Assembly (NCBI GenBank): GCA_015232575.1
Contig: JADFZL010000003.1
Location: 128,001 to 192,000 of the forward strand
Length of the DNA: 64,000 nt
Reading direction: 5' to 3'
From: Candidatus Rifleibacteriota bacterium
GTDB taxonomy: Bacteria; Muiribacteriota; Ozemobacteria; Ozemobacterales; Ozemobacteraceae
Of the stretch, positions 5,433-45,333 are shown one piece after another. The notes below the pieces were generated by a model, which was given only the letters and a program-made list of their open reading frames with translations, was not told where the DNA came from and did not search any database. Positions within the stretch are counted from its first letter, which is position 1; each line of letters starts with the position of its first letter. The translations under genes were made by a program, and so were the position numbers.

Positions 5433-5453
5433 TAGTTAATGGTATTTAAATAT

Positions 5454-5483
5454 AGAGCCAGACCATTACTTTGGTCTGGCTCT
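5454..5483 (+). promoter_or_regulatory. stem-loop (11-bp stem AGAGCCAGACC/GGTCTGGCTCT) between flgE and flbD; intra-operon attenuator or mRNA-stabilising hairpin
   Basis: perfect inverted repeat read directly; no T-run after it, so not a strong terminator. Confidence 0.4.
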
Positions 5484-5496
5484 GTGGCATAAAAAA

Positions 5497-5931: not shown

Positions 5932-5936
5932 GGTTT

Positions 5937-12210: not shown

Positions 12211-12270
12211 TTGAAAATCTGCGTAATCTGCGGACAAAAATCTTTTCTCGTCTCGTCTTTTCTTTTAATC

Positions 12271-12723: not shown

Positions 12724-12735
12724 AGTATCCTCCTT

Positions 12736-23445: not shown

Positions 23446-23467
23446 AGGAATGCTCCAGAACTCTATT

Positions 23468-24603: not shown

Positions 24604-25286
24604 AGGTGACCTCCCTGCTGGAATTCAACTTCGAAAGGAGCTTCTATTTTTTCGATTACCCTTGTTTCGGGATATTTGGGACTCTGGGCTTCAATTTTAA
24701 GTTCAACGAAATTCCTCATATTTACAGCCAGAAGAGTTTGATCAGTAACAGGTAATATCCGCAAATCAATTTTAAATGGATCTTCGCATATAACCTGGGA
24801 TACTTCTCCGATTAATGAAGGATCTCCAGATACAAATGATCTTCTGTAGACAAGCTTCTTATTTTTTACTTCAAGATAACCTTCCATAATCAGAGGATCT
24901 TTTGCCGGCTCGCCAATAATATCTTTTGAACCGGGAAGGCACATGAAAAATCTCAACAAAGGGGTATTGTTGCTGCAATTTGTAAGAGAAAAAGGATTTC
25001 CTGCATGATAAAGCTTTTTAGGTCTGTCATCTCCGAATGGTTCTGTTCCGCGCTGGGAAACAATTGAAGGAATGGAAACCTTATTGAGTTCCTGACGCAA
25101 AAAATCAAGTCCGATTCTCATTTTATTTGTTGTTTGTGCAACCCACATTCCCCGTTCATTTACCCTTCGGAAGTGCATAAAAAGATCATATAACCCGGAA
25201 AGAAGCATAACAAGAACAAGAGCCGCAATAATTATCTCTACGAGTGTAAAAGCATCTTTTGAAGAAAAAGTTTTTTTACTCTTCAA
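24600..25286 (-). CDS. prepilin-type N-terminal cleavage/methylation domain protein (pseudopilin) with Ala at -1
   Basis: MKSKKTFSSKDA|FTLVEIIIAALVLVMLLSGL: FTLVE with Glu +5; Ala at -1. Confidence 0.65.
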   Translation of the reverse strand: MKSKKTFSSKDAFTLVEIIIAALVLVMLLSGLYDLFMHFRRVNERGMWVAQTTNKMRIGLDFLRQELNKVSIPSIVSQRGTEPFGDDRPKKLYHAGNPFSLTNCSNNTPLLRFFMCLPGSKDIIGEPAKDPLIMEGYLEVKNKKLVYRRSFVSGDPSLIGEVSQVICEDPFKIDLRILPVTDQTLLAVNMRNFVELKIEAQSPKYPETRVIEKIEAPFEVEFQQGGHL

Positions 25287-25289
25287 TTG

Positions 25290-26327
25290 CTAGAACCCTT
25301 TCTCTTTCATATAATCTTCCATCGTTTTGCCTTCTTTTTTGAGTTTTTCATTCAATTTTTCCTGACCAGGCAACTCGCCACGTTTTTGTTTTTCGAGAAG
25401 ATTTTTCTTTATTTCTTCGAGAACTTCTTCACGTTCTTCCTGAGTCGTGGCATTTTCGAGTTTGTCTCTTGCCTCTGTTATCATTGAATCAATCTTTTCT
25501 TTTTCTTCGGTGCCAAGTTTTTCGGTCTGGCTTCCGATGAGTTCTTCAAGATCTTTCTGTGTAAATTCACCAGCTTCAATTGTATCAAGGAGTTTATCTT
25601 TGGAAGATCTATTGAGATAATCGAATTTATGTGTGATAATGAACTCTTCGTTTGAATCAGCAATGTAATCAAGAGCTCGCATGTAAACTTCGGCTGCTTT
25701 GTCTTTCAGGTTAGAGCTTTCATAAAGGAAAGCAAGTTGTAACATAGGTTCTTTGTTCCAGTCTTTTCCCTGGAGCGAACTTTGCAGAGCTTCTTCATAA
25801 ATCTTCATCGCCTGTTTCAGTTCTTCATAGTTTTTATATCTGAGTGTCGGATTCAGGCGAAATGCCTGGAACAAAGTAACCGCCAGTTTTAATCTCTGCT
25901 TTGAATCTTGATTTTTGAGATAAGTGTTAAACTTTTCCTCACCTTTTTGATTAAACTTTTCCTGTAAATTTTTTACCTTCTTTTTATAGTCTTTTAATTT
26001 CTGGTTGTATTCCTCACCCTTTTCAGTGGAAGGTCTTGATCTGGCTACTATTTCAAAGTTTTCTTTAGCCTGAAGATAGTCTTCGAGTCTGGTAAGAATC
26101 TGTGCAAATACATATCTGAAAACGGCATTGTCAGGCTCTTTTTTGATGGCCTCAAGCATAAGTTTGCTTGCCTTTTCAAGATCATTTGCCTTGAAGGCTT
26201 CTTCTGCCTGTTTCATAAGTTCAGATGCTTCCTGATTTGTCCCCTTAGCTGAAACAGGCAGAAAACTACCTGAAAGTAGAATTACAGCAGACAGAAAAAT
26301 AATTACAATGCAGCTTTTCGATTTCAT
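25290..26327 (-). CDS. secreted TPR-like/coiled-coil protein
   Basis: signal peptide; TPR-like N-half; K/E-rich coiled-coil C-half. Confidence 0.5.
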   Translation of the reverse strand: MKSKSCIVIIFLSAVILLSGSFLPVSAKGTNQEASELMKQAEEAFKANDLEKASKLMLEAIKKEPDNAVFRYVFAQILTRLEDYLQAKENFEIVARSRPSTEKGEEYNQKLKDYKKKVKNLQEKFNQKGEEKFNTYLKNQDSKQRLKLAVTLFQAFRLNPTLRYKNYEELKQAMKIYEEALQSSLQGKDWNKEPMLQLAFLYESSNLKDKAAEVYMRALDYIADSNEEFIITHKFDYLNRSSKDKLLDTIEAGEFTQKDLEELIGSQTEKLGTEEKEKIDSMITEARDKLENATTQEEREEVLEEIKKNLLEKQKRGELPGQEKLNEKLKKEGKTMEDYMKEKGF

Positions 26328-26332
26328 AGGCT

Positions 26333-29300
26333 TTACCTTTTATGACGTTGATCTTCGAGAGTTCTGATAATTTCCATGTTTGGACTCCATATTCTGAAAT
26401 GCACCTTCAAAGTTCTGTTATTTGGAATTGTTACTTTATCTGAAGCTTCGAGTTTAATTGAACATTCTTCCCCGTCATCGTTAGGATTTGGGAAAGTATA
26501 TTCTCTCCAGTAAAATTTATCAACTGGAACAACTCCGCCAGAAGGATAGGTTGGAGTATCCATCAAAGTAATCATTGATGTGACTTTTCCGTTATCATCT
26601 TTAAATTTCGAGTCTGAGGTTAGTTTTACGGAAACTCCGCATGGGAAACTCGAGTCGGTATTTTTGAATGCGTTGATGTTGTCCCATGTCCAATAGCGGA
26701 AAACCAGCGGAATTTTTGAATCATGGTGAAATGCTGTTTTGTTTGCGGCAACGGTATCACCGCCATTCCAGTAATTCGGGGGTTTTATTTCTGAAATTGT
26801 CAAATTAGTTTCTGGAACGGCAAAAAGCCAGGGTCTGAAGAATCCCTTTTCCACATTATCCTGAGTTGGAAAATAACCTGTTTCCTGATCGGCAGTTAAT
26901 AGATAATTAAAGAGCCACTGGCTATCAGAATATTGAGTATCCTGATCTGTATAAGACTTCATTCCAATGTTTGAATCAGTAGCAATGACAACAGAAGCTG
27001 TTCTGGCCTGGGTAAAGGCTTCCCAATATTTAGGCGACTGGCCTTCACCAGCAAACAGGTTTCCATACAAAGTTGCTTTGTGAATCTTTGTATTCAGTAT
27101 TTCAAGAGCGATATTAGGCTTTCCTTCATCGACAAGTGAACTCAGAAACATAAACTCACCCCAGTTTCCTGCAGGTGAAGTGTAAGTAAGTCTTCCGCCT
27201 TTAACTGGCAGGGTACTCGTCGGAGCATTTAGGTTTCCTGTTGGCTGTGTCCACGAGCTGACAAAGTTGTCTGGAAGGTCAACTCCTGAAAAAGTCAGAG
27301 AGGCTATTGCAAGAACATTATCAGCACTTGGAGTCTGGTTACCTGAACCGTCAGTTACAGTTGGAAACATTTTGATCGCTTTTGCGCTCCATGGGTAGAA
27401 GTGTATTCCATCAGAAAAGACCGGTGTTCCATCGGTTGGCAAGGTTGCCGGAGCTGTAAAATTTCCACGGGCGGCATCGCCGAATGGAAGTATATAATTA
27501 TCTGATGTTTGTGCGAAATTGTATCCCATTGGCTCATTTAAATCGGAAAGAGGGACTTCAAATTCAATTGAGGAATGTCCTTCCCATGTTTCGTCGGCTG
27601 CGGAATATAAATCTTTTAGACTAGAAACCGGTGCTCCATTCCTGTCAAGAATTTTTGGCACGGCTTTCGAAGGATCTACTGAAATATTTTTCCAGACAAA
27701 TCGCTGCGCCGGAACAACGGTAACACCGAGTAAAGAAGGAAAAGGAGAATTTTCATTGCTGCTGCCTTTTAAACCAACATAAACAGGTACACATACGTTA
27801 TAAGTGAAAGTTGCTCCGATTAATGGTGTTTCACCAGGTGGCCAAAAACCTTCATCAGAAGGGATTAGATATCTTGCAAATTCACTATTTTTGTTATTGC
27901 CACTTTTTCGTTCCCCTGCCTCAAATATTTCAAGAGTTTCAAGAGATTTAGTTCCCATAATATCACTATTATATTTCAATTTGTTTGAATCATTTGTCGA
28001 GAGCAAAGGGTTATTGTCTAGGACTTTGAATTTGATCTTATCTGCTGTGGAACTCTGGGCAAGGGTCTTACCGGTTGCCCCTTTGATTTCGCCGGTTGTT
28101 GCGACCCATGAAAAGGAAGCGGGTGGTTGGGTATCTACTACAGTTACATAAACAATGGTATTGCGTCCGGGAGAAGAATACCCAATTGCAGGATATGAAC
28201 CACGGACAAAAATTCCGCCGACGTCATAGTCGTTTTCATCAAGTGACCATTCATAATAGTCATCCAGGTTTGTTGTTGCCGATGAAATCTGTGTCAATTC
28301 TGGTTTTAGTTTTCTTGTTCCTTCAATCCAGACCCACACCCAGTCAGAGTAAGACTCCAGGTTTGTCTGGCAATCTACTTTCCAATAGTCGGGGGCTGTA
28401 GGAGTATTGAAGTTTACACTTACAAAGGTAGATGCTTTATTAATCTGTGTCGAAGAAGCAGGCGGAGTAATAAAAAAATTTGTATTGTAGACACCAGAAC
28501 TATACCAAGTTGGATTTCCCTGGCAAGCGATGTAGCAGGATGCTAAAATGATCTTCTCTTTTTCTGCAATTGGCCCTTTTGAATAGTTAGGGTTTGAACC
28601 AATATCTTTAAATGCGCGAGTGACAGGGGCGGCCCCTATATCTTTTTTTGTGCCAATTGCCAGAGGTGTTAAAATCTTTTCTTTAAGCCAGGCCTCCAGT
28701 GCGCTCTTGTGACTTGGTTTTGATGCGGTAAAAGAAGTAGTCTCTGGTACATAGGAGAGAACATCTCCACCAAAATCAGGGGTGGCAGGGGTACTTAGTA
28801 TTTTATCAAATACCGCTTCAACGTTTAATCCTGGAATTTTAGCATTGATCTGAGGGATGATAAAAGCCTTATTTTGTTGCCACGAATAGCCAAGCATATT
28901 ACGCGCAGTTTTTTCGTCATATTCCAATGACCAGTTTGCATTTACAGCCGGACCTGTGCCCGATTCGTCTACGACGACCATGCAGCTTGGACTCTGCTCT
29001 GCATTAAGCGGAAATATTCTAAAAGTTGGTTCCCCTGGAGGACCGGATCCAGGATCGTAATCACCACGGCCATTTCCTGTTATTGTCCAGGTTGGTTTAG
29101 GAGCATCAGCAAAGGTAGTTGCGTACTGGTTTTTTGCCTCACCTTCTTCCCAAAAAATAGGTCGAGGAGGATCAATAGGGATAGCGCTTTGAATAAGACC
29201 TTCAAAAACTACCTTTGTACCGCATGGTACAACAAGGAATTTCATGTCGTTCTCATCCCATGCCTTGAAGAATTTCCCGCCAGCAAAGGGCGTATTTTCA

Positions 29301-29467
29301 AGATCCGCTGGAAGTGTTGTTTTTTCTGAACTTCCAATAGGTCCTGATCCATTTGGATAACTTATTACACCAGTGATAGGATCCTGGGGACCCTTACCAT
29401 CACATGCAAAAAGGTGGGAACTGGCAACCAGCAAAAAAGCTATAAGCAGATGAAAAAAATATTTCAT
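26333..29467 (-). CDS. large (1044 aa) lipoprotein of unknown function, first gene of the pseudopilin operon
   Basis: MKYFFHLLIAFLLVASSHLFAC signal peptide + lipobox (start moved to the internal Met with a GGAGG RBS); G/P/N/T-rich beta-type sequence; no recognisable catalytic motif. Confidence 0.5.
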   Translation of the reverse strand: MKYFFHLLIAFLLVASSHLFACDGKGPQDPITGVISYPNGSGPIGSSEKTTLPADLENTPFAGGKFFKAWDENDMKFLVVPCGTKVVFEGLIQSAIPIDPPRPIFWEEGEAKNQYATTFADAPKPTWTITGNGRGDYDPGSGPPGEPTFRIFPLNAEQSPSCMVVVDESGTGPAVNANWSLEYDEKTARNMLGYSWQQNKAFIIPQINAKIPGLNVEAVFDKILSTPATPDFGGDVLSYVPETTSFTASKPSHKSALEAWLKEKILTPLAIGTKKDIGAAPVTRAFKDIGSNPNYSKGPIAEKEKIILASCYIACQGNPTWYSSGVYNTNFFITPPASSTQINKASTFVSVNFNTPTAPDYWKVDCQTNLESYSDWVWVWIEGTRKLKPELTQISSATTNLDDYYEWSLDENDYDVGGIFVRGSYPAIGYSSPGRNTIVYVTVVDTQPPASFSWVATTGEIKGATGKTLAQSSTADKIKFKVLDNNPLLSTNDSNKLKYNSDIMGTKSLETLEIFEAGERKSGNNKNSEFARYLIPSDEGFWPPGETPLIGATFTYNVCVPVYVGLKGSSNENSPFPSLLGVTVVPAQRFVWKNISVDPSKAVPKILDRNGAPVSSLKDLYSAADETWEGHSSIEFEVPLSDLNEPMGYNFAQTSDNYILPFGDAARGNFTAPATLPTDGTPVFSDGIHFYPWSAKAIKMFPTVTDGSGNQTPSADNVLAIASLTFSGVDLPDNFVSSWTQPTGNLNAPTSTLPVKGGRLTYTSPAGNWGEFMFLSSLVDEGKPNIALEILNTKIHKATLYGNLFAGEGQSPKYWEAFTQARTASVVIATDSNIGMKSYTDQDTQYSDSQWLFNYLLTADQETGYFPTQDNVEKGFFRPWLFAVPETNLTISEIKPPNYWNGGDTVAANKTAFHHDSKIPLVFRYWTWDNINAFKNTDSSFPCGVSVKLTSDSKFKDDNGKVTSMITLMDTPTYPSGGVVPVDKFYWREYTFPNPNDDGEECSIKLEASDKVTIPNNRTLKVHFRIWSPNMEIIRTLEDQRHKR

Positions 29468-29663
29468 ATCTCCCTCCCCAATTTCTTTTTTCACTTTAAA
29501 ACATCGTTTCAAAAACACTTGTAAGATGATATTTCAGTCACTATTAAAAAGGATCTTTTCATTCTTCTACAAAAAACACTTTTCTATTATCAGTATATCA
29601 CTTTCTTCAAAAAATGAGTATACGAAATCTCCTAATGATTTGTAAAGAAAGTCTGAAGTGAAA

Positions 29664-33264: not shown

Positions 33265-34533
33265 TCAACTTAAAAAGCTGATAATATCCTTATAAGTAAC
33301 GAATACAAGCATTGTCAGAAGAAAGATCATTCCCAGGAAGTGAATTTTTTCTTCCCATTCAGGTGTGATAATAAGTTTTGTTCCGATTATTGAATTGATG
33401 AATCCAAGAATGACTTCCAGAAGGACGAATACAATTCTTCCGCCGTCAAGAACGGGGAAGGGGAACAGGTTAATGAGGCCAATATTTATTGAAAGAAGTG
33501 CTGTCAGTGAAAGCAGATCAGCTAACCCTTTGTGAGCCTGTTGTTTAATCATGTGCATTATTTTCACCGGACCCGCAAAATCAGCTTCTGTTTCACCAAA
33601 AATCATTCCGGCGATTCCCATAACTGTCTGCATGATTATTGCCCCAGTTCTTTCGAATGCTTTGCTTAAGGCTTTTCCTGATGAAAGTGATTTGAAATCA
33701 TAGATATTAGGAGCAAGAGAAACGCCAATTTTCCCTGTTCCTTCTGAACCGGCAGGAGTTACAGGAATTTTCAGGTTTTCTCTGCTGTAAATCAGGTAAT
33801 TTCCGTTGTTATGTGACGTTGAACCCTGAATAAGACCTCCGCCAAATCCAGGTCTTGGAATTGGATGGTCGCGTATTACATCGAGAATAATCTCTTTTCC
33901 GCCATGTTTCTGTACTACAGAAATTCCTTCGCTCCACTCTTCAAGCTTGACACCGGCTACGGCAGTAATAATGTCACCTTTTTTAATTCCGGCAAGTTCT
34001 GCAGGTTTTCCTTTGGAAAGATCAAGTACGGCCATATTGGAAAGAGGGCCGCCTGAAACGGTAAAAATGATAAAATAAAGAACCACTGCCCAGAAAAGAT
34101 TCATAATTGAACCGGCAGCGAGAACAAGAACTTTAACCCATCTTGATTTTGACGGATAACCTCTAGGGTCAGTTGGATCAAGGAGCGGAATTACATCGTC
34201 GGGATCTGGTTCTGGCTGAGGTTCTGTGGTCGGTTTTGCTTCAGGATTCTCACTCTGTTTCTGGGCTTCATCTGAAGGTTTTTCTTCTTCTTCCGGAGCA
34301 TCCATGCCGGCAAGGCGAACAAAACCACCAAGTGGGAAGGGCCTTAATGAATAAAGAGTTTCACCCCATCTGAATTTCAGAAGTCGATTTCCAAAACCGA
34401 TTGCAAATTCTATTACCCAAATTCCGGTTAACTTTGCTGTTATGTAATGACCGAATTCATGTACCAGGGCAATACTTCCAAGAACAAAGCAAATTGATAA
34501 AAAAGTAGTAATAATCATTAAAATAATTGTCAT
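33265..34533 (-). CDS. rseP: RIP metalloprotease RseP (site-2 protease, M50 family)
   Basis: HEFGHYITAK HExxH motif; PDZ domain; NLFPFPVLDGG LDG motif. Confidence 0.85.
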   Translation of the reverse strand: MTIILMIITTFLSICFVLGSIALVHEFGHYITAKLTGIWVIEFAIGFGNRLLKFRWGETLYSLRPFPLGGFVRLAGMDAPEEEEKPSDEAQKQSENPEAKPTTEPQPEPDPDDVIPLLDPTDPRGYPSKSRWVKVLVLAAGSIMNLFWAVVLYFIIFTVSGGPLSNMAVLDLSKGKPAELAGIKKGDIITAVAGVKLEEWSEGISVVQKHGGKEIILDVIRDHPIPRPGFGGGLIQGSTSHNNGNYLIYSRENLKIPVTPAGSEGTGKIGVSLAPNIYDFKSLSSGKALSKAFERTGAIIMQTVMGIAGMIFGETEADFAGPVKIMHMIKQQAHKGLADLLSLTALLSINIGLINLFPFPVLDGGRIVFVLLEVILGFINSIIGTKLIITPEWEEKIHFLGMIFLLTMLVFVTYKDIISFLS

Positions 34534-34592
34534 TCCAGTTTATCCAATCTTTATTGATAATTAATATGAGTGAAGTTTGAGAGAAGGGTTAA

Positions 34593-35369
34593 TCAGAGCG
34601 CCAGATACAAATATGCAATCGGAGCAACAAAAATAAGGCTGTCGATACGGTCGAGAATACCACCGTGAGCGCCGAGAATAGTTCCAGAGTCCTTTATTCC
34701 TGCTTCCCGCTTAAGAACAGATTCGAACAGATCAGACAACTGTCCGAAAATTCCAATTGAGATTCCCAGACTTATGGCTTTGTTTATTCCGAGTGGGAGA
34801 AATCTCGTTTTGGAAAGGAGGAAAACTGTAAGAATCACTGCAAACAGGCCGCCAACACTGCCGGAAATTGTCTTTTTCGGACTTATTTTTGGAGCTAGTG
34901 CCGGACCTCTGAATGTCATTCCTACTGCGTATGCCCCGGTATCAAGTGCCCAGACAGCAGCCAGGACAGCAAAAAGTACTTCACCGCCTTTAATATGGCC
35001 GAGAATCAGAAAAAAGGACAGGCAAAAGGGTATGTACAAAATATTTACCATTCCGAGCGAAAACCTTTTATAGCCATTTTCATTAAAACCTTTCAGAACA
35101 ATCATAGAGCCAAGTGCCATTACAGAAATTCCAGCTGAAACAGCAAGGCCTTTTTCAAGCCAGAGTGCACTTGCTAACATGATTATTGTACCAAGAAAAA
35201 ATTCCGGATATGGCGATGATTTCTGGTCTGTTGAAAACATTCTGTACAATTCAAATTGTCCGATCAGTGAAACAATGAGAAGCAATGTGAATCTGAAATA
35301 GTCTCCGGCTGTCAGAAAAAAGTAAACAGCTGGAATACCTATGAGAGCTATTATTATACGTGAAATCAT
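34593..35369 (-). CDS. cdsA: phosphatidate cytidylyltransferase
   Basis: SGSVGGLFAVILT...GGILDRIDSLIF signature. Confidence 0.85.
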   Translation of the reverse strand: MISRIIIALIGIPAVYFFLTAGDYFRFTLLLIVSLIGQFELYRMFSTDQKSSPYPEFFLGTIIMLASALWLEKGLAVSAGISVMALGSMIVLKGFNENGYKRFSLGMVNILYIPFCLSFFLILGHIKGGEVLFAVLAAVWALDTGAYAVGMTFRGPALAPKISPKKTISGSVGGLFAVILTVFLLSKTRFLPLGINKAISLGISIGIFGQLSDLFESVLKREAGIKDSGTILGAHGGILDRIDSLIFVAPIAYLYLAL

Positions 35370-36155
35370 TTACTTGCCAGCCTTAATCTGTTCACTTGTT
35401 TTTCCGAAACGCCTTTCTCTTTTCTGATAGCTGCTGACCGCAGTCAGGAACTGAATTTCATCAAAATCGGGCCAGTTAACATCGGTAAAATAGAATTCTG
35501 AATATGCTGATTCCCACAGGAGGAAATTGCTTATGCGCATTTCTCCGCTTGTTCTGATAATCAGATCAGGGTCTGGAATGTGAGGTGCGTAGAGCATTTC
35601 AGCAACCAGTTTTTCGTCTATTTTCTCTGGTGGAATTTTCTGTTCGGCGATTTTTTTTAATGCATCAATAATTTCTGCTCTGCCGCCGTAATTAATACAG
35701 AGATTGAGCATTGTTCCGGTATTATTGGCCATTAACTCTCTTGATTTTCTGGCTTCTTCGATAATTTCAGCAGCTAATCCTTCTTTTCTTCCCATCATGT
35801 TAAAACGGAAGCCTTCATCGTGAAGTTCCTGGCGCTCACGGGCAATATATGTGCGAATGAGGCGCATCAGAGCGGAAACTTCAAAGCTTGGTCTGGTCCA
35901 GTTTTCGGAAGAAAAAACGAAGAGACTTATACAGCCGACTCCAATTTTATCAGCAATTCGGACAATTTTTTTTACATTCTTTGCGCCTGCCTGATGGCCG
36001 CGTATTCTGGAGAGACCCTGAGATTTAGCCCATCTTCCGTTTCCATCCATGATTATGCCGATGTGACGGGGGACTGAAGAAACATTAATTTCCTTGATCA
36101 GTGTTTCAATTTCCTGTGGATACAGAATGGCCGAACGAGTTGCTTGTTGCTTCAC
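35370..36155 (-). CDS. uppS: isoprenyl transferase (undecaprenyl diphosphate synthase); GTG start
   Basis: HIGIIMDGNGRWA and FSSENWTRP motifs. Confidence 0.9.
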   Translation of the reverse strand: MKQQATRSAILYPQEIETLIKEINVSSVPRHIGIIMDGNGRWAKSQGLSRIRGHQAGAKNVKKIVRIADKIGVGCISLFVFSSENWTRPSFEVSALMRLIRTYIARERQELHDEGFRFNMMGRKEGLAAEIIEEARKSRELMANNTGTMLNLCINYGGRAEIIDALKKIAEQKIPPEKIDEKLVAEMLYAPHIPDPDLIIRTSGEMRISNFLLWESAYSEFYFTDVNWPDFDEIQFLTAVSSYQKRERRFGKTSEQIKAGK

Positions 36156-36156
36156 C

Positions 36157-36327
36157 TTATTGTCCGGATCCCTTCACAATGGCTTCCACGGGGCAAACAT
36201 CTTCGCATTCTCCGCAATTGTTGCATTTAGAGGTAATTATGAAAGGTTCGCCTTCTTTAATGGCGTTCTGTGGACAAATTGACAAGCAACTGCCGCAGCC
36301 CATGCAGTCTTCAGTGATCTTGTACAT
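36157..36327 (-). CDS. 2[4Fe-4S] ferredoxin (56 aa), absent from the ORF track (below its length cutoff)
   Basis: hand translation of the minus strand gives MYKITEDCMGCGSCLSICPQNAIKEGEPFIITSKCNNCGECEDVCPVEAIVKGSGQ*, i.e. two Cx2Cx2Cx3CP motifs; it fits exactly between the frr stop (2-nt gap) and the uppS start (1-nt gap). Confidence 0.7.
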   Translation of the reverse strand: MYKITEDCMGCGSCLSICPQNAIKEGEPFIITSKCNNCGECEDVCPVEAIVKGSGQ

Positions 36328-36329
36328 AA

Positions 36330-36890
36330 CTACCGTCCCAGTATTTCTTTTTCTTTTGCTTCAAGCAAATGATTGATTTTTTCAATGAAACTGTCGGTAA
36401 TTTTCTGAACGCGATCGGTGGTTTTTTTGCATTCGTCCTGAGTAATTTCACTCTTTTTTTCAAGAGCTTTGAGCGCGTCATTTGCCTCGCGGCGGACGTT
36501 TCTGATTGCGACTCTAAATTCTTCAGCTTTTTTCTTGCATGATTTTACGAGATCATTACGGCGCTCTTCAGTAAGTGGCGGTATGGGAAGGCGGATGAGT
36601 TGTCCGTCATTCATCGGATTAAGTCCGAGGTCTGATTTTTGAATGGCTTTCTCGATTTCACCAAGAAGGTTCTTTTCCCATGGTTGAATTATTATGGTTT
36701 TTGCATCTGGTGCTGAAACGGAGGCAACATGATGCAGCGCGGTATCTGTTCCATAATAGTTTACTACTATTCTGTCTAACAATGACGGTGTTGCTCTCGA
36801 AGTCCGCATTGTAGAATATTCTTTTCTCAGGACTTCTACTGACTGTTCCATTTTGGTTTCAGATTCTTTAACAATTTTTTCAAGAGACAT
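36330..36890 (-). CDS. frr: ribosome recycling factor
   Basis: 186 aa; LDRIVVNYYGTDTALHHVASVSAPDAKTIIIQPWEK. Confidence 0.9.
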   Translation of the reverse strand: MSLEKIVKESETKMEQSVEVLRKEYSTMRTSRATPSLLDRIVVNYYGTDTALHHVASVSAPDAKTIIIQPWEKNLLGEIEKAIQKSDLGLNPMNDGQLIRLPIPPLTEERRNDLVKSCKKKAEEFRVAIRNVRREANDALKALEKKSEITQDECKKTTDRVQKITDSFIEKINHLLEAKEKEILGR

Positions 36891-37074
36891 AAAATTCCTC
36901 CGGGCATTTTAGTATTTCAGGCATTTATATTAATCAAAATTTATTTACGAATCAGCTTCGGGCTCGATAAATCAAGCCCCTACAAAAGCATGATGAACAA
37001 ATTTTGCAGAATTGGTAGTATATTATCATTTTTCGACAAATTTGCAACCATATAAAGGTTTATTTTATTATTTT

Positions 37075-37788
37075 TCAATAGACTCGAGTGCCGATCTTGT
37101 CACCGATACAGGCTTTTAATAAATTTCCTCTTTCGGCGAGTGAAGTAACAATTAATGGCAGCTTGTTTTCACGGCATAAAGCAATTGCCATTAAATCCAT
37201 AACGCCAAGTTGTTTGTCAAGAACTTCACTGTAGGTTATGGTTTCAAACTTTTTTGCATCAGGATTTTTTTCGGGATCTGAATCATACACTCCGTCGACT
37301 TTTGTTGCTTTGATAAGTACGTCGCAACCTGTTTCAATTGCACGGAGGGCAGCTGCGGTATCAGTGCTGAAGAAAGGATTTCCTGTTCCGCCTGCGAAAA
37401 AACAGACATATCCATCAGAAACAGCTTTTCTGACATTATCAATCTGGTAGGATTCACAGATTCCCGGCATTGCAACTGCAGAGAAAACGCGTGTTTTAAC
37501 ATGTTTTTCGAGATGGTCTGCGAAACATATTGCGTTCATTACGGTTGCGAGCATTCCTATATAATCACCATGAAATCTTTTAAGTGCTGGAAGGGCGTTT
37601 CTACCGCCCCTGAAAAGATTTCCTCCGCCAAGAACAACTGATGGAGTGATTTTCTTCTCAACGAGTTCGGCAATCATTTCAGAAAAATTTTCAAGACTTG
37701 ACTTGTCGAAACCGGTTCCTGAATCACCGCCAAGCATTTCCCCGGAAAGTTTTACCAGAGGTTTGGAAAATTGAAATTTTTTATTCAT
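37075..37788 (-). CDS. pyrH: UMP kinase
   Basis: VKLSGEMLGG...VLGGGNLFRG amino-acid-kinase fold motifs. Confidence 0.9.
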   Translation of the reverse strand: MNKKFQFSKPLVKLSGEMLGGDSGTGFDKSSLENFSEMIAELVEKKITPSVVLGGGNLFRGGRNALPALKRFHGDYIGMLATVMNAICFADHLEKHVKTRVFSAVAMPGICESYQIDNVRKAVSDGYVCFFAGGTGNPFFSTDTAAALRAIETGCDVLIKATKVDGVYDSDPEKNPDAKKFETITYSEVLDKQLGVMDLMAIALCRENKLPLIVTSLAERGNLLKACIGDKIGTRVY

Positions 37789-37838
37789 TGCATAAAAATA
37801 CGCCGGGCTGTGAGCCCGGCTTATTATCCTTTATCAGA

Positions 37839-38798
37839 TTATGCGCAACTTTCGCAGCAGCAACAGGATTTTTCTTCGGTTTTTTCTTCAGTAGGCTGAG
37901 AAGATTTTTCACCAACATTCCAGCGATTGAAAGCAACTATTTTCACAGTAGTTCCAATCTTTTTGGCTGTTTCTTCTGCGATAGCATTGATATTTTTGCT
38001 GTCGTCTTTGATATATAGCTGTTCGAGGAGGCAGGAATCTTTGTAAAATTTATCAATTCTGCCTTCAACGATTTTCTGAAGGATGTTTTCGGGTTTGCTT
38101 GCATTTTTCGGATCGTTTTTGATCTGTCCGAGAACTACGTCTCTTTCTCTTTCAACAATCTTTGCAGGAACATCTGTTCTTCCGACGAATTCAGGTTTCA
38201 TGGCAGCGATCTGAAGAGCGACATTGTGTGAGAAATCAATCAGATCAGTGCTCTTTGCAGCTTCAGCAGTTCCACATTCAACGATGGTTGATACGGCAAG
38301 AGCGCCATCACCATGGATATAACTGTCGATGATACCATGTTTTCCCTGAGGAATTGTGAGGTGTGCAAAACGGCCGATTGCGATGTTTTCACCGATTTTG
38401 GCAATAAGATTTTTTCTAACTTCTTCGACCTTGTGTCCGTCGGGAAGTGTAACAGTTTCGAGTTTGGAAATTTCTGTCACTTCTGGATGAGCAAGTAAAT
38501 ATTTTGAAAGTGAATTGCACAGATCAATAAAAAGTTCATTTTTTGCAACAAAATCAGTTTCACAGTTAACTTCAAGGATTACACCATTTCTTCTGTCGGG
38601 TGTGAGAGTGATTGAAACCAATCCCTGGGAAACTGCTCTGCCAGATTTTTTGTCTGCTGAAGCGAGACCCTTTTTTCTGAGAAAATCGACGGCTTCTTCA
38701 ATATTTCCATTGCAGGAAGTAAGTGCTTCTTTGCACTTCATCATGCCAGCACCAGTTTTATCACGGAGTTCACGCACCATTTCAGCGGAGATTATCAT
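37839..38798 (-). CDS. tsf: elongation factor Ts with Cys-rich C-terminal tail
   Basis: MIISAEMVRELRDKTGAGMMKCKEAL UBA-like N-terminus; tail ...EEKSCCCCESCA. Confidence 0.9.
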   Translation of the reverse strand: MIISAEMVRELRDKTGAGMMKCKEALTSCNGNIEEAVDFLRKKGLASADKKSGRAVSQGLVSITLTPDRRNGVILEVNCETDFVAKNELFIDLCNSLSKYLLAHPEVTEISKLETVTLPDGHKVEEVRKNLIAKIGENIAIGRFAHLTIPQGKHGIIDSYIHGDGALAVSTIVECGTAEAAKSTDLIDFSHNVALQIAAMKPEFVGRTDVPAKIVERERDVVLGQIKNDPKNASKPENILQKIVEGRIDKFYKDSCLLEQLYIKDDSKNINAIAEETAKKIGTTVKIVAFNRWNVGEKSSQPTEEKTEEKSCCCCESCA

Positions 38799-38844
38799 AT
38801 ATTTTTCACCTTCATAAAAATTTAATTTTTTATTTACAAATAAA

Positions 38845-38878
38845 CATTACCCTGCCTGTAACGGCAGGGTAATATGTT
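38845..38878 (-). promoter_or_regulatory. 13-bp stem-loop in the rpsB-tsf intergenic region (probable partial terminator/attenuator)
   Basis: ACATTACCCTGCC tgtaac GGCAGGGTAATATGT; on the minus strand it is followed by a T-rich tract. Confidence 0.45.
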
Positions 38879-39003
38879 TGTAACTGCCCACCGTCTTGAA
38901 ATCAATAACTCGACGGAAATACCTAACGCATACTCAGCAGTTTTACAGAACTGAAATTGCGCTGGAATTCCAAAAGTATTGATTGAAAATATTGTAGATC
39001 AGA

Positions 39004-39822
39004 CTATTCGATTACGATTTTATCCTGCATTTCATCAGCCAGATTTGCTTCCTTTTTAGAAGGAACAGTTTCCATTTTTTCAACGGCATCCTTTAACTGG
39101 CCAACTTCTTCAACCTGAGTCTGAACATCTGAGAAGGATTTTCCTTCAAGTGCCTCAAGTACTGAATCTGCGACAAGACTTGCAACCAGCTTAACAGCTC
39201 TGATAGCGTCATCGTTGCCTGGAATTACGTAGTCAATCTGATCCGGGTCGCAGTTTGTATCAACTACTGCTACGATCGGAATACCGACTTTGCGGGCTTC
39301 TGCTACAGCGATAGCTTCCTTGTGGGGATCAATAATGAAGAGTGCGCTGGGCATTCCCTTCATATTCTTAATTCCGCCAAGGCTCTTTTCAAGTTTTTCG
39401 CGTTCTTTTCTCATAGAGGCGGCTTCTTTTTTCGGATAAGACTCGATTTTGCCGCTGTCAATAAGATCGTCAAGTTCTTTAAGTCTTTGAATTCTCTTCT
39501 GAATGGTGACGTGGTTGGTCAACATTCCTCCGAGCCATCTGTAATTTACATAAAACATGTTGCAGCGCTGGGCTTCGGCTTTGATGATATCTTGTGCCTG
39601 ACGCTTAGTGGAAACCATAAGAATGGGTTTTCCATCTCTCACAACACTTTTAATAAATTCACATGCTTCATCCAGAAGTTTTGTTGTCTTCTGAAGATCA
39701 ATAATATAGATGCCATTACGGCTGGTAAAGATGTATTTTGCCATTTTGGGATTCCAACGCCGAGTTTGGTGCCCAAAATGAACACCAGCCTCAAGTAGGC
39801 TTTTCATTGAAACCAGTGCCAT
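39004..39822 (-). CDS. rpsB: 30S ribosomal protein S2
   Basis: [27 protein letters not shown]; start moved to the internal Met with a GGAGGT RBS. Confidence 0.9.
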
Positions 39823-40159
39823 TTCCTTTGTACCTCCAAGTATTTTATTTTTCCGTTCCAAGACGTGGGCGGACATTTATTCTACAGTATAATCTTAATT
39901 CCGTCAAGTAAACACGCTAATTTAAATAATATTTTTTTTATCTTTCGACTGAAATTATCTTCTAGAGCCATGTTCAGTTATTCATTAACGATAAATTCTG
40001 ACGAAATAATTATTGGAAAATCATAAATATTTATTTGTTTTGAAAATTTCTGGAAAAGAATTATACTACATATTACATTTTTACGAAAGTATAATTTATT
40101 AGTACATGAATTTTTATTCTGGCATGCGTGATAAAGTATGTTTAGACGTTAAAATGGTT

Positions 40160-40270: not shown

Positions 40271-41713
40271 ATGAATCTTGCAATGTTAACTGATTTGTAC
40301 CAATTTTCCATGTTGTATGGTTATCATTTGAGTGGAACTGATCGCAAAATGGCAAATTTTGATGTCTTTTTCCGGCGGCATCCGTTTAATGGCGGATTTG
40401 CCGTTTTTGCTGGATTAGCCGATCTTCTTGCAGCGCTTCAGAATTTTCATTTTTCTGATTCAGATCTTGAATATATTAAAAGTCTGGGGTTGAAAGATGC
40501 TGGCTTTATCGAGAAGTTAAAGAATTTTCATTTTTCAGGTGATATCTTTTCCTTTCCAGAAGGAAGCATCTGTTTTCCTGGCGAGCCGCTTATGAGATTT
40601 TCAGGACCATTGTTTGAAGTTCAGTTGCTTGAAACGCTTGTTCTGAACATTATAAATTTTCAAACACTGATAGCCACTAAATCAGCCCGCATTTTTGAGG
40701 CATCAGGTAAAAGCGCAGTTGTTGAATTTGGATTGCGCCGTTCGCATGGTCCGGATGGTGGACTATCAGCTTCAAGAGCAGCATATATCGGTGGATGTGT
40801 AGCAACTTCAAATGTTCTTGCCGGACAGAAATATGGAATTCCTGTCAAAGGAACAATGGCGCATTCCTGGATTATGTCATTTCCGAATGAATTAATTTCA
40901 TTCAGAGAGTATGCAAAAGCTTTTCCAGATTCATCTGTTTTTCTGGTTGACACATACAACACATTAGCTGATGGTGTTCCAAACGCAATAACCGTAGGAC
41001 TGGAAATGAAAAAACACGGTCACACGCTCAAAGGAATCAGACTTGATTCAGGCGATCTTGCATATTTAAGTGTTGAAGCCAGAAAAATGCTTGATGAAGC
41101 AGGATTGACTGAAACAAAAATTCTTGCAAGTAACGATCTTGATGAGTGGATAGTTGATGCGTTAAGGCATGAAGGTGCAAAAATTGATATATGGGGAATC
41201 GGCACAAAACTGGTAACTGGTTCACCTGATTCCGCGCTGGGTGGAGTTTTTAAATTGTCGGCAATTGAGAATGAAGATGGAGTGATTATTCCAAAAATAA
41301 AAGTTTCCCAGAATGAAGAAAAAACGACTAATCCCGGATTGAAGAGCGTATATCGTGTTTACGACACGTCCGGCATGATGACTGGAGATATAATCTGCCT
41401 GGCAGATGAGATTCCAACAGATGAATCTTTTAAACTTGCCATACATCCTCTTAATGAATATAAATTTTTCCGTGTAACTCCTGAATATTCAATTAAGGCG
41501 ATGATGAAAAAGGTTTTTTCAAATGGAGTAATCGTTGATGGAACTGAAAAACTTTCCGATATAAGGAATAGAGTGTTAGGAGAGCTGGAGAAACTTCATT
41601 CAAGTCACAAGCGACTCGTTAATCCGCATTATTATAAAGTTTCACTTTCTCAGAAATTATTCAGATTACGAAAGTCCCTGCTTGAAAAGGGATTAAATAT
41701 CCAAAAAGAATAA
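40271..41713 (+). CDS. pncB: nicotinate phosphoribosyltransferase
   Basis: MNLAMLTDLYQFSMLYGY N-terminus and overall NAPRTase pattern. Confidence 0.85.
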   Translation: MNLAMLTDLYQFSMLYGYHLSGTDRKMANFDVFFRRHPFNGGFAVFAGLADLLAALQNFHFSDSDLEYIKSLGLKDAGFIEKLKNFHFSGDIFSFPEGSICFPGEPLMRFSGPLFEVQLLETLVLNIINFQTLIATKSARIFEASGKSAVVEFGLRRSHGPDGGLSASRAAYIGGCVATSNVLAGQKYGIPVKGTMAHSWIMSFPNELISFREYAKAFPDSSVFLVDTYNTLADGVPNAITVGLEMKKHGHTLKGIRLDSGDLAYLSVEARKMLDEAGLTETKILASNDLDEWIVDALRHEGAKIDIWGIGTKLVTGSPDSALGGVFKLSAIENEDGVIIPKIKVSQNEEKTTNPGLKSVYRVYDTSGMMTGDIICLADEIPTDESFKLAIHPLNEYKFFRVTPEYSIKAMMKKVFSNGVIVDGTEKLSDIRNRVLGELEKLHSSHKRLVNPHYYKVSLSQKLFRLRKSLLEKGLNIQKE

Positions 41714-41830
41714 TTCTCACAGGAAATCATTGTTAAGCTTGAAGAACTGTTATATAATTACACGACTTAATTACAGCTTGAAATGTTTTTGTTTCTTATT
41801 AAAAATTCGAAAGTGATGTTCAGATAACTA

Positions 41831-44635
41831 ATGATTGAAGAAATCTTAATAAGTTTACAGGATAAACTAAGATCTGGGGATTATCTTGATAATGAGACTG
41901 CAGTTGATAAGCTTAGTTCTCTGTTGCAGTCTCAGAATGCTGAAAAACAGAGAAAAATTATTGCCACTCTTTTGCCTTCAGCGCTTTCATCAAAATTTGA
42001 AAATATTCAGAAGAAGACGATTCAGGTCGTTTTTAATTATCCATCGATATTGAAAGATGTTTTGCCTTCATTGAGGTTGTCTTCTGATTCAACTGTTCGA
42101 TTCTGGTCACATTTCATGCTCATTGAGCTTGGGTTTCTTTCTCAGGATGAATTGATTGATATTGTAAATAGTCGTGAAAGCGATGAAATTCGAAAACTTG
42201 TACTTGAATCTCTCGCAAAAAAGCCTGATAAAACAATCATTTTAACTGTTCTGGAAAAGATCAGTGATCCGAGCTGGGTTATCAGAAAACAATCAAAAAA
42301 AATACTCATTCAGCAGGGCGATTCAATTTATCAGATAATTCAGGAATATTTTCTTTCATGTCCCAGCAGACAGAAATATGAATGTATAAAGATAATTCCT
42401 CTGATACTCAAGGATAAAGCAGTTCTTCTATTTAAAAAAATGCTTGAATCTGATAAGAATGGTCAGGTGAAACCATATATCTGTGCCGGGTTGGGAGAAA
42501 TCCGTAATGAAGAAACTCAAAACATTTTGCTTGGGCTGCTTGAAGATCCTTCACTCCTTGTAAGAGAAGAGGCTGTTAAAGCACTGTCAAACTGGGGAAG
42601 AGAGATTGTAAGACCTCTTTTTTCAATTATGTCAACCGCGCCCCAGGATCTGATGGCAACGACGATGTCTTTGATGGGAAGAGTTCTTCAGCTGGATGTT
42701 GTTAAGGAATTGAAAGATTTCTTCGGACATCTTAACCAGGAAATGAAATTTTTTATGCTTACTGCTATTGCTGAAGTAAGAAATCAGGCAATTGTTCATG
42801 AACTCCTGGATTTTCTCAGAGATGAATCTGTTTTCATTCAGGAATATTCGATTAAAATTCTTGTCAGGCTTGGTGTTCATGCTATTGATCCGCTGCTTGC
42901 CCAGATAGATCAGGAAGACGAAAAACTTGTAATTCCTGTTCTTAAAGTTGTTGGGGAAATAGGTTCTAAAGATGCTTTACGACCCCTTCTTTTTCTGATA
43001 GATAACAGCAAGAATCCACTTGTTAGAACATGTGCAGTAGAGGCGATTTCAAAACTTCAGAAATTTGAGCTTATTGCCGGGCTGCTATTGTTAAAACTTG
43101 ATGACAAAGACTTGACAATTCGGCACACAATCATTGAAAACCTTTCAAAACATGAAAGAAGTGCTTTTATCAAAGATCTTCTTGTTTGTACAATGGATAG
43201 AAATACTGACGTTGCACTTGGGTCAAGAGAAATTCTCAGACGCCGTGATTATCCGGGCGTTCCGGGTTTTCTTATTCTTTATGAAGGTGCGACTGATTTT
43301 GAAAAAGATAAGATTGTTTCCATGGTGTCAAAATTATCAGACGATCAGATTGATTCTGTCCTGCGAAAGGAAAAGATCCAGATAGACAGCTTTAATCCTG
43401 AAAACGTTGAAACACGCGTGCTGAGTAGAAAATATAATAAAGAGAATATTACCGATATCAAGGAACTTTTGTATTATCTGCATGAAGAAGGCGGATCAGA
43501 TCTACATCTCAGCATCGGTTTGCCACCAAGTATAAGAATTCATGGTGAACTGGTAAGAACAACTTTTGAAAATATTACTCCTGAAAAGAGCCGGTATCTG
43601 ATTTTTTCTCTGCTCAATGAAGCGCAGAAGCTCGCTTTTTCTGAACGCATGGAAATCGATTTTTCATTTGAAATACTTGACTGTGCAAGATTCAGAGCCA
43701 ATATTTTTACGCAAAAAAATGGTGTTGCCGGTGTATTTAGAATTATTCCCAATACAATTCCAAATTTTGAAGCTCTCTCACTTGATCGTGAAATTATGGC
43801 CAAAGTCTGCAATCACAGGTCTGGTCTGATATTGGTTACCGGATCAACTGGTTCAGGAAAATCTACAACTTTGGCCGCAATGATTGATCACATCAATCGT
43901 ACAAGATATGATCACATAATTACAATTGAAGATCCTATCGAATTTGTCCATCCTCACAAACGTTGCGTTGTTTCTCAGAGAGAACTTGGCAGTCATACTC
44001 ATAATTTCTCAAATGCTCTGCGCAGTGCATTGCGTGAAGATCCCGACGTTATTCTCGTCGGGGAAATGCGTGACCTTGAAACAATGCATCTGGCAATATC
44101 AGCAGCAGAAACAGGACATCTTGTTTTTTCAACTCTTCATACTATTAATGCTTACGAGTCTATTAACCGCGTTCTTGGCTCGTTTCCGGGGGATCAGCAG
44201 GAAACTGTAAGAATGCAACTCGCCGGAACTCTCAGGGCGATTCTTTCCCAGAGACTTATTCCAGCTTATCTTTCTGCTGGACGCGTTCTTGCTTATGAAG
44301 TACTGATTGCATCAACACCAGTAAGACGCTGTATAAAGGAAGCAAAGATTGATCAGATTATTTCTGTCATGCAGACTGGTCGGGCAGATGGCATGATAAC
44401 CATGGATGCCTGTCTTGAAGACCTGGTCATTCGCAAGAGAATTACTTTCGACGATGGTCTGAAATATGCCGAAGACAAGAAAACCTTTGAAGTAAAGGTA
44501 CAGGAAAGACTTGGATTGCGAGCGAAGAGTAAAAGCGATTCACCGCCAGCCGCACAGGCAGCACAAAACCAGCCACCGGGCGTTGCAAAGCCTGTAAAGT
44601 CAGAATCGCCACAGGTAAAGGGCAAAGGTCACTGA
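41831..44635 (+). CDS. fusion protein: N-terminal ~530-aa HEAT/PBS-lyase-type repeat domain + C-terminal PilT-family ATPase + P/A/Q-rich tail
   Basis: HEAT-like repeats (VREEAVKALSNWG; VRTCAVEAISKL; IRHTIIENLSK); then GGSDLHLSIGLPP, GSTGSGKSTT, DVILVGEMRD, TLHT, as in PilT. Confidence 0.75.
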   Translation: MIEEILISLQDKLRSGDYLDNETAVDKLSSLLQSQNAEKQRKIIATLLPSALSSKFENIQKKTIQVVFNYPSILKDVLPSLRLSSDSTVRFWSHFMLIELGFLSQDELIDIVNSRESDEIRKLVLESLAKKPDKTIILTVLEKISDPSWVIRKQSKKILIQQGDSIYQIIQEYFLSCPSRQKYECIKIIPLILKDKAVLLFKKMLESDKNGQVKPYICAGLGEIRNEETQNILLGLLEDPSLLVREEAVKALSNWGREIVRPLFSIMSTAPQDLMATTMSLMGRVLQLDVVKELKDFFGHLNQEMKFFMLTAIAEVRNQAIVHELLDFLRDESVFIQEYSIKILVRLGVHAIDPLLAQIDQEDEKLVIPVLKVVGEIGSKDALRPLLFLIDNSKNPLVRTCAVEAISKLQKFELIAGLLLLKLDDKDLTIRHTIIENLSKHERSAFIKDLLVCTMDRNTDVALGSREILRRRDYPGVPGFLILYEGATDFEKDKIVSMVSKLSDDQIDSVLRKEKIQIDSFNPENVETRVLSRKYNKENITDIKELLYYLHEEGGSDLHLSIGLPPSIRIHGELVRTTFENITPEKSRYLIFSLLNEAQKLAFSERMEIDFSFEILDCARFRANIFTQKNGVAGVFRIIPNTIPNFEALSLDREIMAKVCNHRSGLILVTGSTGSGKSTTLAAMIDHINRTRYDHIITIEDPIEFVHPHKRCVVSQRELGSHTHNFSNALRSALREDPDVILVGEMRDLETMHLAISAAETGHLVFSTLHTINAYESINRVLGSFPGDQQETVRMQLAGTLRAILSQRLIPAYLSAGRVLAYEVLIASTPVRRCIKEAKIDQIISVMQTGRADGMITMDACLEDLVIRKRITFDDGLKYAEDKKTFEVKVQERLGLRAKSKSDSPPAAQAAQNQPPGVAKPVKSESPQVKGKGH

Positions 44636-44691: not shown

Positions 44692-45333
44692 CTATGAGTC
44701 TTTTATAGGTATGTAATACTCAGCCGTGCCTGTGCAAAATTCGCACATTTCATCAGTTTTGTTCTTTGCAAGAAATGATTCTTCACATTTGTTGCAAACT
44801 TGTGCGGGCAGTATTGGCGGTTTGCCAAACGTTTTTACATTGACTTTCTCTGTTCTGAACAGCTCACGTCCGATAGTTTTGAATTCCTTCTTGATAAGTG
44901 CACCAGAAGCTTTTCTGAGTTCCATATTCGTTTCAACTTCAATGGCTCTTTTTCGATTAAAAAAATTATGTATTTCGGGAGTTTTTTCTTTGTTGATTTT
45001 TGAAAGATCGACAGAAACTCTCACTCCTCTACCGTCTTTTCGGTCGTAAAGTGTGACTGCAAATCGTCCAAGATTTGTCAGAGCTTGCAGGTATTTATTA
45101 CCGGTTGTGCAGCCAACCATTATCTGCACAACATCTACAAGGCACGCGGAGGTTTCAACCACTGCGAGAATTTTATCATGAACTTTTCCAAGAAGATCAA
45201 GTGCACAATCAACCATTTCAACCCCGATTTCAAGCCCTGGCGCGTCCTTTGTATGAAATTCAGTAATTCTTCTGAAAAATTTGTCTTTTTCTGCTTCTGT
45301 ATACATTAGAATCCCCTTTAGCATAATTTTCAC
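44692..45333 (-). CDS. FmdE/FwdE-family protein with C-terminal zinc ribbon
   Basis: FwdE-like core; C-terminal CNKCEE...CEFC. Confidence 0.55.
   Translation of the reverse strand: MKIMLKGILMYTEAEKDKFFRRITEFHTKDAPGLEIGVEMVDCALDLLGKVHDKILAVVETSACLVDVVQIMVGCTTGNKYLQALTNLGRFAVTLYDRKDGRGVRVSVDLSKINKEKTPEIHNFFNRKRAIEVETNMELRKASGALIKKEFKTIGRELFRTEKVNVKTFGKPPILPAQVCNKCEESFLAKNKTDEMCEFCTGTAEYYIPIKDS

Follow-up and report, generated by a model that had tools for sequence, protein, structure and literature searches.

A HEAT-repeat solenoid fused to a PilT-type ATPase is conserved in Riflebacteria, in most loci beside a HEAT-bearing cyclase gene

Introduction

A 64,000-nucleotide (nt) stretch of contig JADFZL010000003.1 from a Candidatus Rifleibacteriota bacterium (positions 128,001 to 192,000; here called the window) encodes a 934-residue protein in which a long HEAT-repeat solenoid is fused in front of a complete PilT-type ATPase. 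The fusion is conserved across the Riflebacteria, where its gene usually lies next to that of a HEAT-bearing class III nucleotidyl cyclase. Our favoured reading, which we hold at about even strength, is that the protein is a pilus-associated, adaptor-bearing PilT-type motor.

PilT and PilU normally carry a single N-terminal domain and are described as minimal two-domain motors (PMC12607626), which lends interest to a PilT-clade motor that bears a solenoid across a candidate phylum. Debate continues over what recruits and regulates PilT and PilU and over how they are coupled to surface sensing. We found no published discussion of the HEAT::PilT architecture, and publications that speak of a "PilT N-terminus" deal with the PIN domain, which is unrelated. 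A protein from an NCBI Candidatus Riflebacteria metagenome-assembled genome (MAG) is 100% identical to the window fusion and is named PilT/PilU family type 4a pilus ATPase; other relatives carry that name or "twitching motility protein PilT". The sequences are thus already known, and it is the architecture that goes undiscussed in the literature we found.

One reading frame encodes a solenoid and a motor

The gene is an uninterrupted open reading frame (ORF) on the forward strand, with an ATG start and 0 internal stops. Its parts, with the evidence for each, are as follows (aa, amino acids; pLDDT, predicted local distance difference test; dN/dS, ratio of nonsynonymous to synonymous substitution rates).

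41831–44635 (+), whole HEAT::PilT fusion gene; 934 aa plus stop, single ORF
41831–43390 (+), N-terminal HEAT/alpha-solenoid, aa 1–520, about 30 helices; AlphaFold2 pLDDT, Pfam HEAT_2/HEAT
43391–43456 (+), linker, aa 521–542 (FNPENVETRVLSRKYNKENITD); low pLDDT, yet conserved
43457–43750 (+), PilT N-terminal (N2D-type) domain, aa 543–640; TIGR01420 alignment, PilT structures
43751–44500 (+), PilT C-terminal ATPase domain, aa 641–890; Pfam T2SSE, PDB 6ojx, Foldseek
44501–44632 (+), disordered C-terminal tail, aa 891–934; pLDDT, dN/dS

A first-pass annotation of this DNA had described about 530 aa of HEAT-type repeats ahead of the ATPase and a Pro/Ala/Gln-rich tail behind it. The domain search bears out this layout: Pfam identifies HEAT_2 in four stretches (E 9e-29), HEAT (4.6e-13) and T2SSE (2.7e-46), with the HEAT region spanning aa 1–520, and the tail is rich in Pro, Ala, Gln, Lys and Ser. 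An AlphaFold2 monomer model, built from a 23-sequence alignment (mean pLDDT 78, predicted template modelling score (pTM) 0.46), predicts an all-alpha solenoid over aa 1–520 with pLDDT near 90 throughout, followed by a PilT-like alpha/beta core at about 545–895 with lower confidence than the solenoid. Residues 527–545 of the linker region have pLDDT below 50 and are predicted to be flexible, and aa 897–934 of the tail, at pLDDT of about 30, are predicted to be disordered. When the whole model was searched with Foldseek, the matches were all to the PilT family and none was informative on the solenoid.

The ATPase module is complete and closest to PilT

The NCBIfam model for PilT/PilU, TIGR01420, matches aa 543–884 at 461.6 bits against a cut-off of 319.1 and is covered from position 2 to 342 of 343. 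The PilT module is therefore complete and not a fragment; the first-pass annotation, which named the Walker A and B, Asp and His boxes, had also called it complete. The motifs are listed below; invariance was judged over 23 family members.

43841–43867 (+), Walker A, GSTGSGKST, aa 671–679; G671, T673–K677 and T679 invariant in the family
43928–43942 (+), Asp box, EDPIE, aa 700–704; invariant in the family
44039–44074 (+), Walker B, DPDVILVGEMRD, aa 737–748; invariant in the family
44111–44143 (+), His box, TGHLVFSTLHT, aa 761–771; H763 and H770 invariant in the family
44318–44341 (+), counterpart of the AIRNLIRE motif, PVRRCIKE, aa 830–837; divergent, with R833 and C834 family-invariant

In P. 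aeruginosa, PilT needs the AIRNLIRE motif to function in vivo. In the N2D-type domain, 52 of 98 columns (aa 543–640) are invariant, and PilT structures align to it from their own N-terminus. Judged by its sequence, the module has all catalytic residues and is apparently active.

Structural databases place the module with PilT. The best PDB matches of the fusion are PilT proteins (6ojx, PilT4, E 9e-103; 3jvu, 7e-102; 2ewv, 4e-101), and matches beyond PilT are weaker (PilU 9n32, E 4.6e-78; DotB, E 1.4e-37). The PilT structures span E 1e-99 to 1e-103. Foldseek likewise returns PilT hexamer subunits first, at 48–49% identity, with PilU at 37–38%. Pairwise comparison puts the module outside the PilU cluster, with lower similarity to PilU than to PilT. 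By these sequence comparisons the module is closer to PilT than to PilU or DotB. Its C-terminal module thus belongs by sequence to the PilT/PilU family, and by architecture the protein departs from the stand-alone, single-N-domain form of that family. The first-pass annotation had called the architecture unusual for PilT or PilU, which the published description of a single N-terminal domain supports (PMC12607626).

An accessory domain in front of N2D is the layout of PilB and GspE (PMC12607626), and we considered whether the HEAT arm replaces the N1D domain in a PilT-clade protein that works like PilB, as an assembly-type (extension) motor. The window and the roughly 55 loci examined yielded no PilB-type gene, which would fit such a role. 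The module itself argues otherwise: the protein has no Pfam match to T2SSE_N (PF05157) and no CxxC zinc motif in aa 543–890, the PilB/GspE family models score 120–134 bits, far under their own cut-offs, against 462 for the PilT family, and the structural matches to PilB reach only 22–24% identity. We regard an extension motor as very unlikely.

The solenoid is constrained, and the linker may be more than a spacer

Conservation extends well beyond the motor. Among orthologues, 105 of the 520 columns of the HEAT region are invariant, and dN/dS, taken where synonymous sites are unsaturated, is 0.017–0.025 in the HEAT region, 0–0.015 in the ATPase domains and 0.10–0.35 in the tail. By these estimates, purifying selection on the HEAT part is comparable to that on the ATPase. 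The linker (aa 521–542) has a mean majority fraction of 0.85 over 34 orthologues, above the conservation of the HEAT array. A segment that is predicted to be flexible yet is well conserved suggests more than a spacer, and the linker may contact the motor or a partner.

The tail evolves fast except at its end. In the window protein the C-terminal motif PPGVAKPVKSESPQVKG occupies aa 915–931 (nt 44573–44623), and 19 of 34 orthologues end in the pattern PPGV(G/A)KP..(S/T)..PQVKG when matched loosely. Its presence is independent of whether the cyclase gene is adjacent. We consider this motif a candidate docking peptide.

The fusion is genuine and conserved across Riflebacteria

Full-length relatives form about 54 clusters of 899–942 aa that are 49–86% identical to the window protein, and they come without exception from Riflebacteria, Rifleibacteriota, Ozemobacteraceae or unlabelled metagenomes. 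Aligned over 23 members, the family is colinear from Met1 through the whole ATPase, and both halves hold many invariant columns. When a profile of just the N-terminal region was run against the GTDB species-representative genomes, it yielded 44 loci, so that orthologous fusions, whose existence the first-pass annotation had left to be checked, are present in related genomes. Throughout, counts out of 35 refer to loci in which the gene is uncut by a contig end, and counts out of 37 to loci with enough flank to judge the neighbour.

The same annotation had raised the chance of a frameshift or stop near 43400, at the junction of the two halves. The reading frame is continuous there in the window, and a single ORF of 919–943 aa is found in 33 of the 35 uncut loci, which come from independent MAGs of many studies. 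The fusion gene is interrupted in the other two (L023 and L048), both low-coverage MAGs. Of the HEAT-only database entries, P0089 alone lies on a long contig; its source assembly has 1.46x coverage, and there rpsB and frr are broken as well. We examined P0089 together with the HEAT-only entries P0052, P0090 and P0163 as possible natural stand-alone proteins and rejected them as contig-end fragments or products of the 1.46x-coverage contig. As far as sequence can tell, the intact window ORF and the 33 orthologues rule out a frameshift or two-gene artefact, and the invariant catalytic residues and low dN/dS in both halves speak against an ATPase that is a dead scaffold; taken together, an artefact or a degenerate protein is so improbable that we set it aside. 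Intact ORFs across genomes and low dN/dS mark the fusion as a real and old one that selection has preserved in its entirety.

Nearly all of the 44 loci are labelled Riflebacteria or lack a phylum label. The four exceptions (L029, L036, L038 and L039) are labelled Erysipelotrichia, Methylomirabilis and, in two cases, Avigastranaerophilus. They encode the Riflebacteria-type fusion in the same rpsB and cyclase synteny, and these bins are probably mislabelled or contaminated.

HEAT::PilT fusions recur outside Riflebacteria beside pilus-type genes

A second HEAT::PilT family (P0055 and P0094–P0111; about 19 clusters, 822–842 aa) is laid out in the same way. Its solenoid bears little resemblance to that of the Riflebacteria family, and its ATPase, at 41–48% identity to the window protein, is no closer than stand-alone PilTs are. 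Three loci of this family were examined:

L002, 8001–11653
L053, 8001–11588
L055, 8001–11587

In all three, a stand-alone T2SSE ATPase gene (365–369 aa) lies directly 3' of the fusion on the same strand. The two genes overlap by 4 nt in L055, and in L053 the downstream PilT-like gene is split in two by a frameshift. Directly upstream of the L053 fusion are three consecutive prepilin-type genes (4373–6640), with the motifs GFSLIE, GYSLIE and GFSIIE. A gene for a 1,280-aa protein also lies upstream of the fusion in that locus.

An exhaustive search with the N-terminal-region profile returned 22,996 matches, mostly generic HEAT proteins, to which a local filter for the PilT module was then applied. 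Among the best 150 HEAT matches, three contain the module: P0051, a member of the Riflebacteria family, P0178 and P0297. The solenoid of P0178 (912 aa) is colinear with that of the Riflebacteria family over 452 aa, and its ATPase is 53–57% identical to that family against 44–48% to stand-alone PilTs, so P0178 is probably a distant orthologue of the Riflebacteria fusion; its gene lies near a prepilin-like gene. P0297 (951 aa) is a further singleton HEAT::PilT fusion. Pairwise identities place P0178, but neither P0297 nor the P0055 family, with the Riflebacteria proteins. The HEAT::PilT architecture thus recurs, and outside Riflebacteria it is physically linked to pilus-type genes. The tandem with a PilT-type gene in the second family, the prepilin genes in one of its loci and the prepilin-like gene near P0178 support reading the fusion as a pilus motor.

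A HEAT-bearing cyclase is the usual neighbour

In most Riflebacteria loci the fusion is divergent from rpsB, and its direct neighbour in 31 of the 37 informative species loci is a gene for a protein of about 1,010 aa, the HEAT-cyclase. In this protein a HEAT array some 830 aa long is followed, at the C-terminus, by a class III nucleotidyl cyclase domain that matches Pfam Guanylate_cyc (E 4e-25 to 8e-20). The 31 loci fall within L008–L051. HEAT-cyclase genes were located at:

L001, 6926–9979 (−)
L004, 10884–13910 (−)
L005, 4945–7974 (+)

The gene is usually convergent with the fusion and directly downstream of it. In one clade (L005, L031, L034 and L037–L039) it instead immediately precedes the fusion on the same strand, about 25–65 nt away. 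Adjacency that outlasts a change of orientation argues for a functional link between the fusion and the cyclase. The best PDB relatives of the cyclase domain are bacterial class III cyclases, and the motifs MFTD, K-x-IGD and ND-x-x-GD-x-VN-x-A-x-R are kept in 18 of 18 aligned sequences. We take its Lys/Asp pair to indicate adenylate specificity, after residues K938 and D1018 of mammalian adenylyl cyclase. Specific homology between the HEAT arrays of the fusion and the cyclase was considered and rejected, the likeness being generic only. We found no literature on HEAT-bearing bacterial cyclases.

Other neighbours vary. In 28 of 44 species loci (for example L004, 7162–7875 (+)), rpsB and the fusion are separated by a conserved gene, read in the direction of the fusion, for a 237-aa HTH_17 protein that could be a local regulator; the window has pncB (40271–41713) in its place. 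In the Ca. Ozemobacter sibiricus locus L006, which has no cyclase gene next to the fusion, a gene three positions downstream of the fusion (12215–13039 (+)) encodes a 274-aa protein with a faint match to PilZ, a receptor for cyclic di-GMP.

Pilus or other substrate

The window offers a companion motor and sets the fusion among housekeeping genes. Features around the fusion and the stand-alone pilT are:

8458–9516 (−), stand-alone canonical PilT paralogue, 352 aa; four boxes and AVRRLIRE present
33265–39876 (−), rseP, cdsA, uppS, frr, pyrH, tsf and rpsB; housekeeping neighbours of the fusion
40271–41713 (+), pncB; directly before the fusion
41730–41758 (+), putative sigma-70-like promoter TTGTTA-17-TATAAT; consensus scan, 10/12, a pattern match alone
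44692–45333 (−), FmdE-like gene; after the fusion and followed by an ArsP-type permease gene (−)

The putative promoter sits in the 117-nt gap between pncB and the start codon of the fusion. The stand-alone pilT, which the first-pass annotation had correctly recognised as a second, canonical copy, is about 32 kb from the fusion on the opposite strand; its product is 47% identical to the fusion's ATPase module and stops right after the core. The presence of this paralogue in the same window, together with the complete and conserved module of the fusion, supports the view that the fusion is a second motor.

Several observations weigh against a pilus-associated motor coupled to the cyclase. We found no pilus gene beside the fusion in the window or in the tabulated Riflebacteria loci, and no gene of the PilB type in the window or the larger set of loci, as noted above. 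PVRRCIKE is identical to AIRNLIRE at 3 of 8 positions, with 2 conservative changes, and the window's stand-alone PilT has AVRRLIRE. Neither the window nor L008, its nearest relative at 84% identity, has the HEAT-cyclase gene next to the fusion. The two HEAT arrays share 23% identity, a value affected by repeat-register ambiguity, and no cyclase-bearing protein is among the 150 closest HEAT relatives of the fusion. Because pTM is low (0.46), the model does not give the placement of the solenoid relative to the motor. The HEAT-cyclase gene is also not adjacent in the Ozemobacter sibiricus group (L017–L019).

Some of these points would suit a motor that left the pilus, with the PilT module recruited elsewhere, the HEAT arms selecting another client, and ATP hydrolysis remodelling or regulating that client, for example a HEAT-cyclase complex or another cytoplasmic or membrane assembly. 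Across the 64-kb window we found no prepilin-like ORF, no PilB-type gene and no Pfam match marking another pilus component, and the stand-alone pilT is the sole pilus-related gene besides the fusion. The fusion lies among rpsB-tsf-pyrH-frr-uppS-cdsA-rseP, pncB and FmdE, its AIRNLIRE counterpart is divergent and has a family-specific invariant Cys, the gene conserved beside it encodes a signalling enzyme, not a component of the pilus, and retraction already has its stand-alone PilT. Against this, the module scores far above the PilT/PilU cut-off over its full length, and the other HEAT::PilT families adjoin PilT-type and prepilin genes. Genes for pilT and pilU are often unlinked from pilus clusters, and no case is known to us in which a PilT-clade ATPase works away from a secretion or pilus platform. 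The first-pass annotation had suggested a non-pilus substrate; we found no direct support for this, and the gene linkage of the second family points the other way. We consider a non-pilus motor doubtful, although it is the most serious of the alternatives. Conservation across the phylum and adjacency to the HEAT-cyclase favour a role in regulation or signalling over a new substrate.

The window also contains flagellar and other genes:

9–1289 (+), fliK; flagellar hook cluster (9–5432)
1300–1713 (+), flgD; flagellar hook cluster
1799–2203 (+), small putative flagellar protein; flagellar hook cluster
2574–5432 (+), FlgE-like hook protein, unusually long at 952 aa; flagellar hook cluster
5937–7466 (−), sigma-54 response regulator; after the hook cluster, near the stand-alone pilT

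With this cluster and the PilT genes in one window, the organism has flagellar genes alongside PilT-type motors. At 22279–29518 (−) there is a run of six ORFs, of which three encode proteins of 388, 345 and 1,061 aa with tetratricopeptide repeat (TPR) matches or none, and three are small (194, 184 and 228 aa) and have no Pfam match.

A model for the fusion

We propose that the fusion is a second, specialised PilT-type motor ATPase of Riflebacteria, which by homology would form a hexamer and hydrolyse ATP. Its most likely site of action would be the type IVa pilus platform, where, next to the stand-alone PilT, it would serve as an accessory motor like PilU or as a regulated motor for retraction. 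Each subunit would present its predicted 520-residue solenoid on a conserved flexible tether of about 20 residues, giving six arms per hexamer that, from the general behaviour of HEAT arrays, could bind proteins. The arms may take the role that N1D domains have in PilB and GspE, docking to partners or regulators or localising the motor. The tail with its terminal motif is reminiscent of the typical PilU tail and may mediate contact with PilT or autoregulation.

The best candidate for a partner of the arm is the HEAT-cyclase, whose gene adjacency suggests a link between the motor and cyclic AMP (cAMP) that could run in either direction. If the fusion is a pilus-associated motor, a direct functional link to the cyclase is a tentative proposal that we think more likely wrong than right. 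A stronger form, in which the motor and the HEAT-cyclase make up one physical module in Riflebacteria, the arms binding the cyclase or both proteins binding a common hub, is improbable on present evidence. The mechanism that such a module might provide, with the mechanical or nucleotide state of the motor setting cAMP directly, or cAMP synthesis gating the motor, is to us equally improbable.

The host organisms are uncultured, and the evidence consists of sequence and synteny. Within that frame, the fusions of Riflebacteria and other lineages are a natural case of an adaptor covalently attached to a retraction motor, and the conserved pairing with the HEAT-cyclase yields a concrete, testable hypothesis of direct coupling between motor and cAMP. 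Were the physical module real, it would be a hard-wired coupling of motor to second messenger that needs no chemosensory relay, and the finding of HEAT::PilT fusions in one or two further lineages, if not more, would in that case point to a general class of retraction ATPases with adaptors that has gone unrecognised. If the arm does no more than localise a redundant paralogue, the fusion would add modestly to the known range of T2SSE ATPase architectures.

Comparison with known systems

The closest known proteins are PilT of P. aeruginosa (3jvv) and PilT4 of Geobacter metallireducens (6ojx), which share with the fusion the N2D and C-terminal domain core of about 345 residues, at 48–49% identity, and the four nucleotide-binding boxes. 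The fusion differs in the 520-aa HEAT solenoid and linker in front of the core, the 44-aa disordered tail behind it, PVRRCIKE in place of AIRNLIRE and, in the window, the lack of linkage to pilus genes.

PilU (P. aeruginosa 9n32; M. xanthus MXAN_1995) offers the nearer functional parallel, as a second PilT-like paralogue beside a canonical PilT. Unlike PilT, PilU continues at its C-terminus for about 30 disordered residues (PMC12607626), and the M. xanthus PilU tail appears regulatory (PMC13584747); the fusion too ends in a disordered tail. P. aeruginosa PilU is tied to cAMP levels, which are raised in pilU mutants (PMC12607626). The second HEAT::PilT family, moreover, stands in a pilT-pilU-like tandem. 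In contrast to these likenesses, the fusion is less similar to PilU (37–38%) than to PilT (48–49%), PilU has no N-terminal extension, and the window fusion is not in tandem with pilT.

PilB, GspE, MshE and Thermus PilF, the last of up to 913 aa, also place regulatory or docking domains before an N2D-C-terminal domain motor. In these ATPases, which serve extension or secretion, the added domains are T2SSE_N/GSPII (MshEN-type) and a zinc motif is present, whereas the fusion combines a PilT-clade motor with HEAT repeats.

By analogy, the solenoid may also be compared with SgmX of M. xanthus, which is described as an alpha-solenoid scaffold controlling where and when a pilus motor acts (PMC7519303, PMC7668184). 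SgmX is described there as a separate TPR protein on the extension side that stimulates polar type IV pilus formation, whereas the solenoid studied here is of the HEAT type and is covalently joined to a PilT-type motor.

Finally, the Pil-Chp/CyaB system of P. aeruginosa functionally links retraction motors to the output of an adenylate cyclase. In that pathway a chemosensory system provides the connection, and the genes lie apart. In most Riflebacteria, by contrast, a HEAT-bearing class III cyclase gene directly adjoins the motor gene, and this arrangement suggests that motor and cyclase may be coupled.

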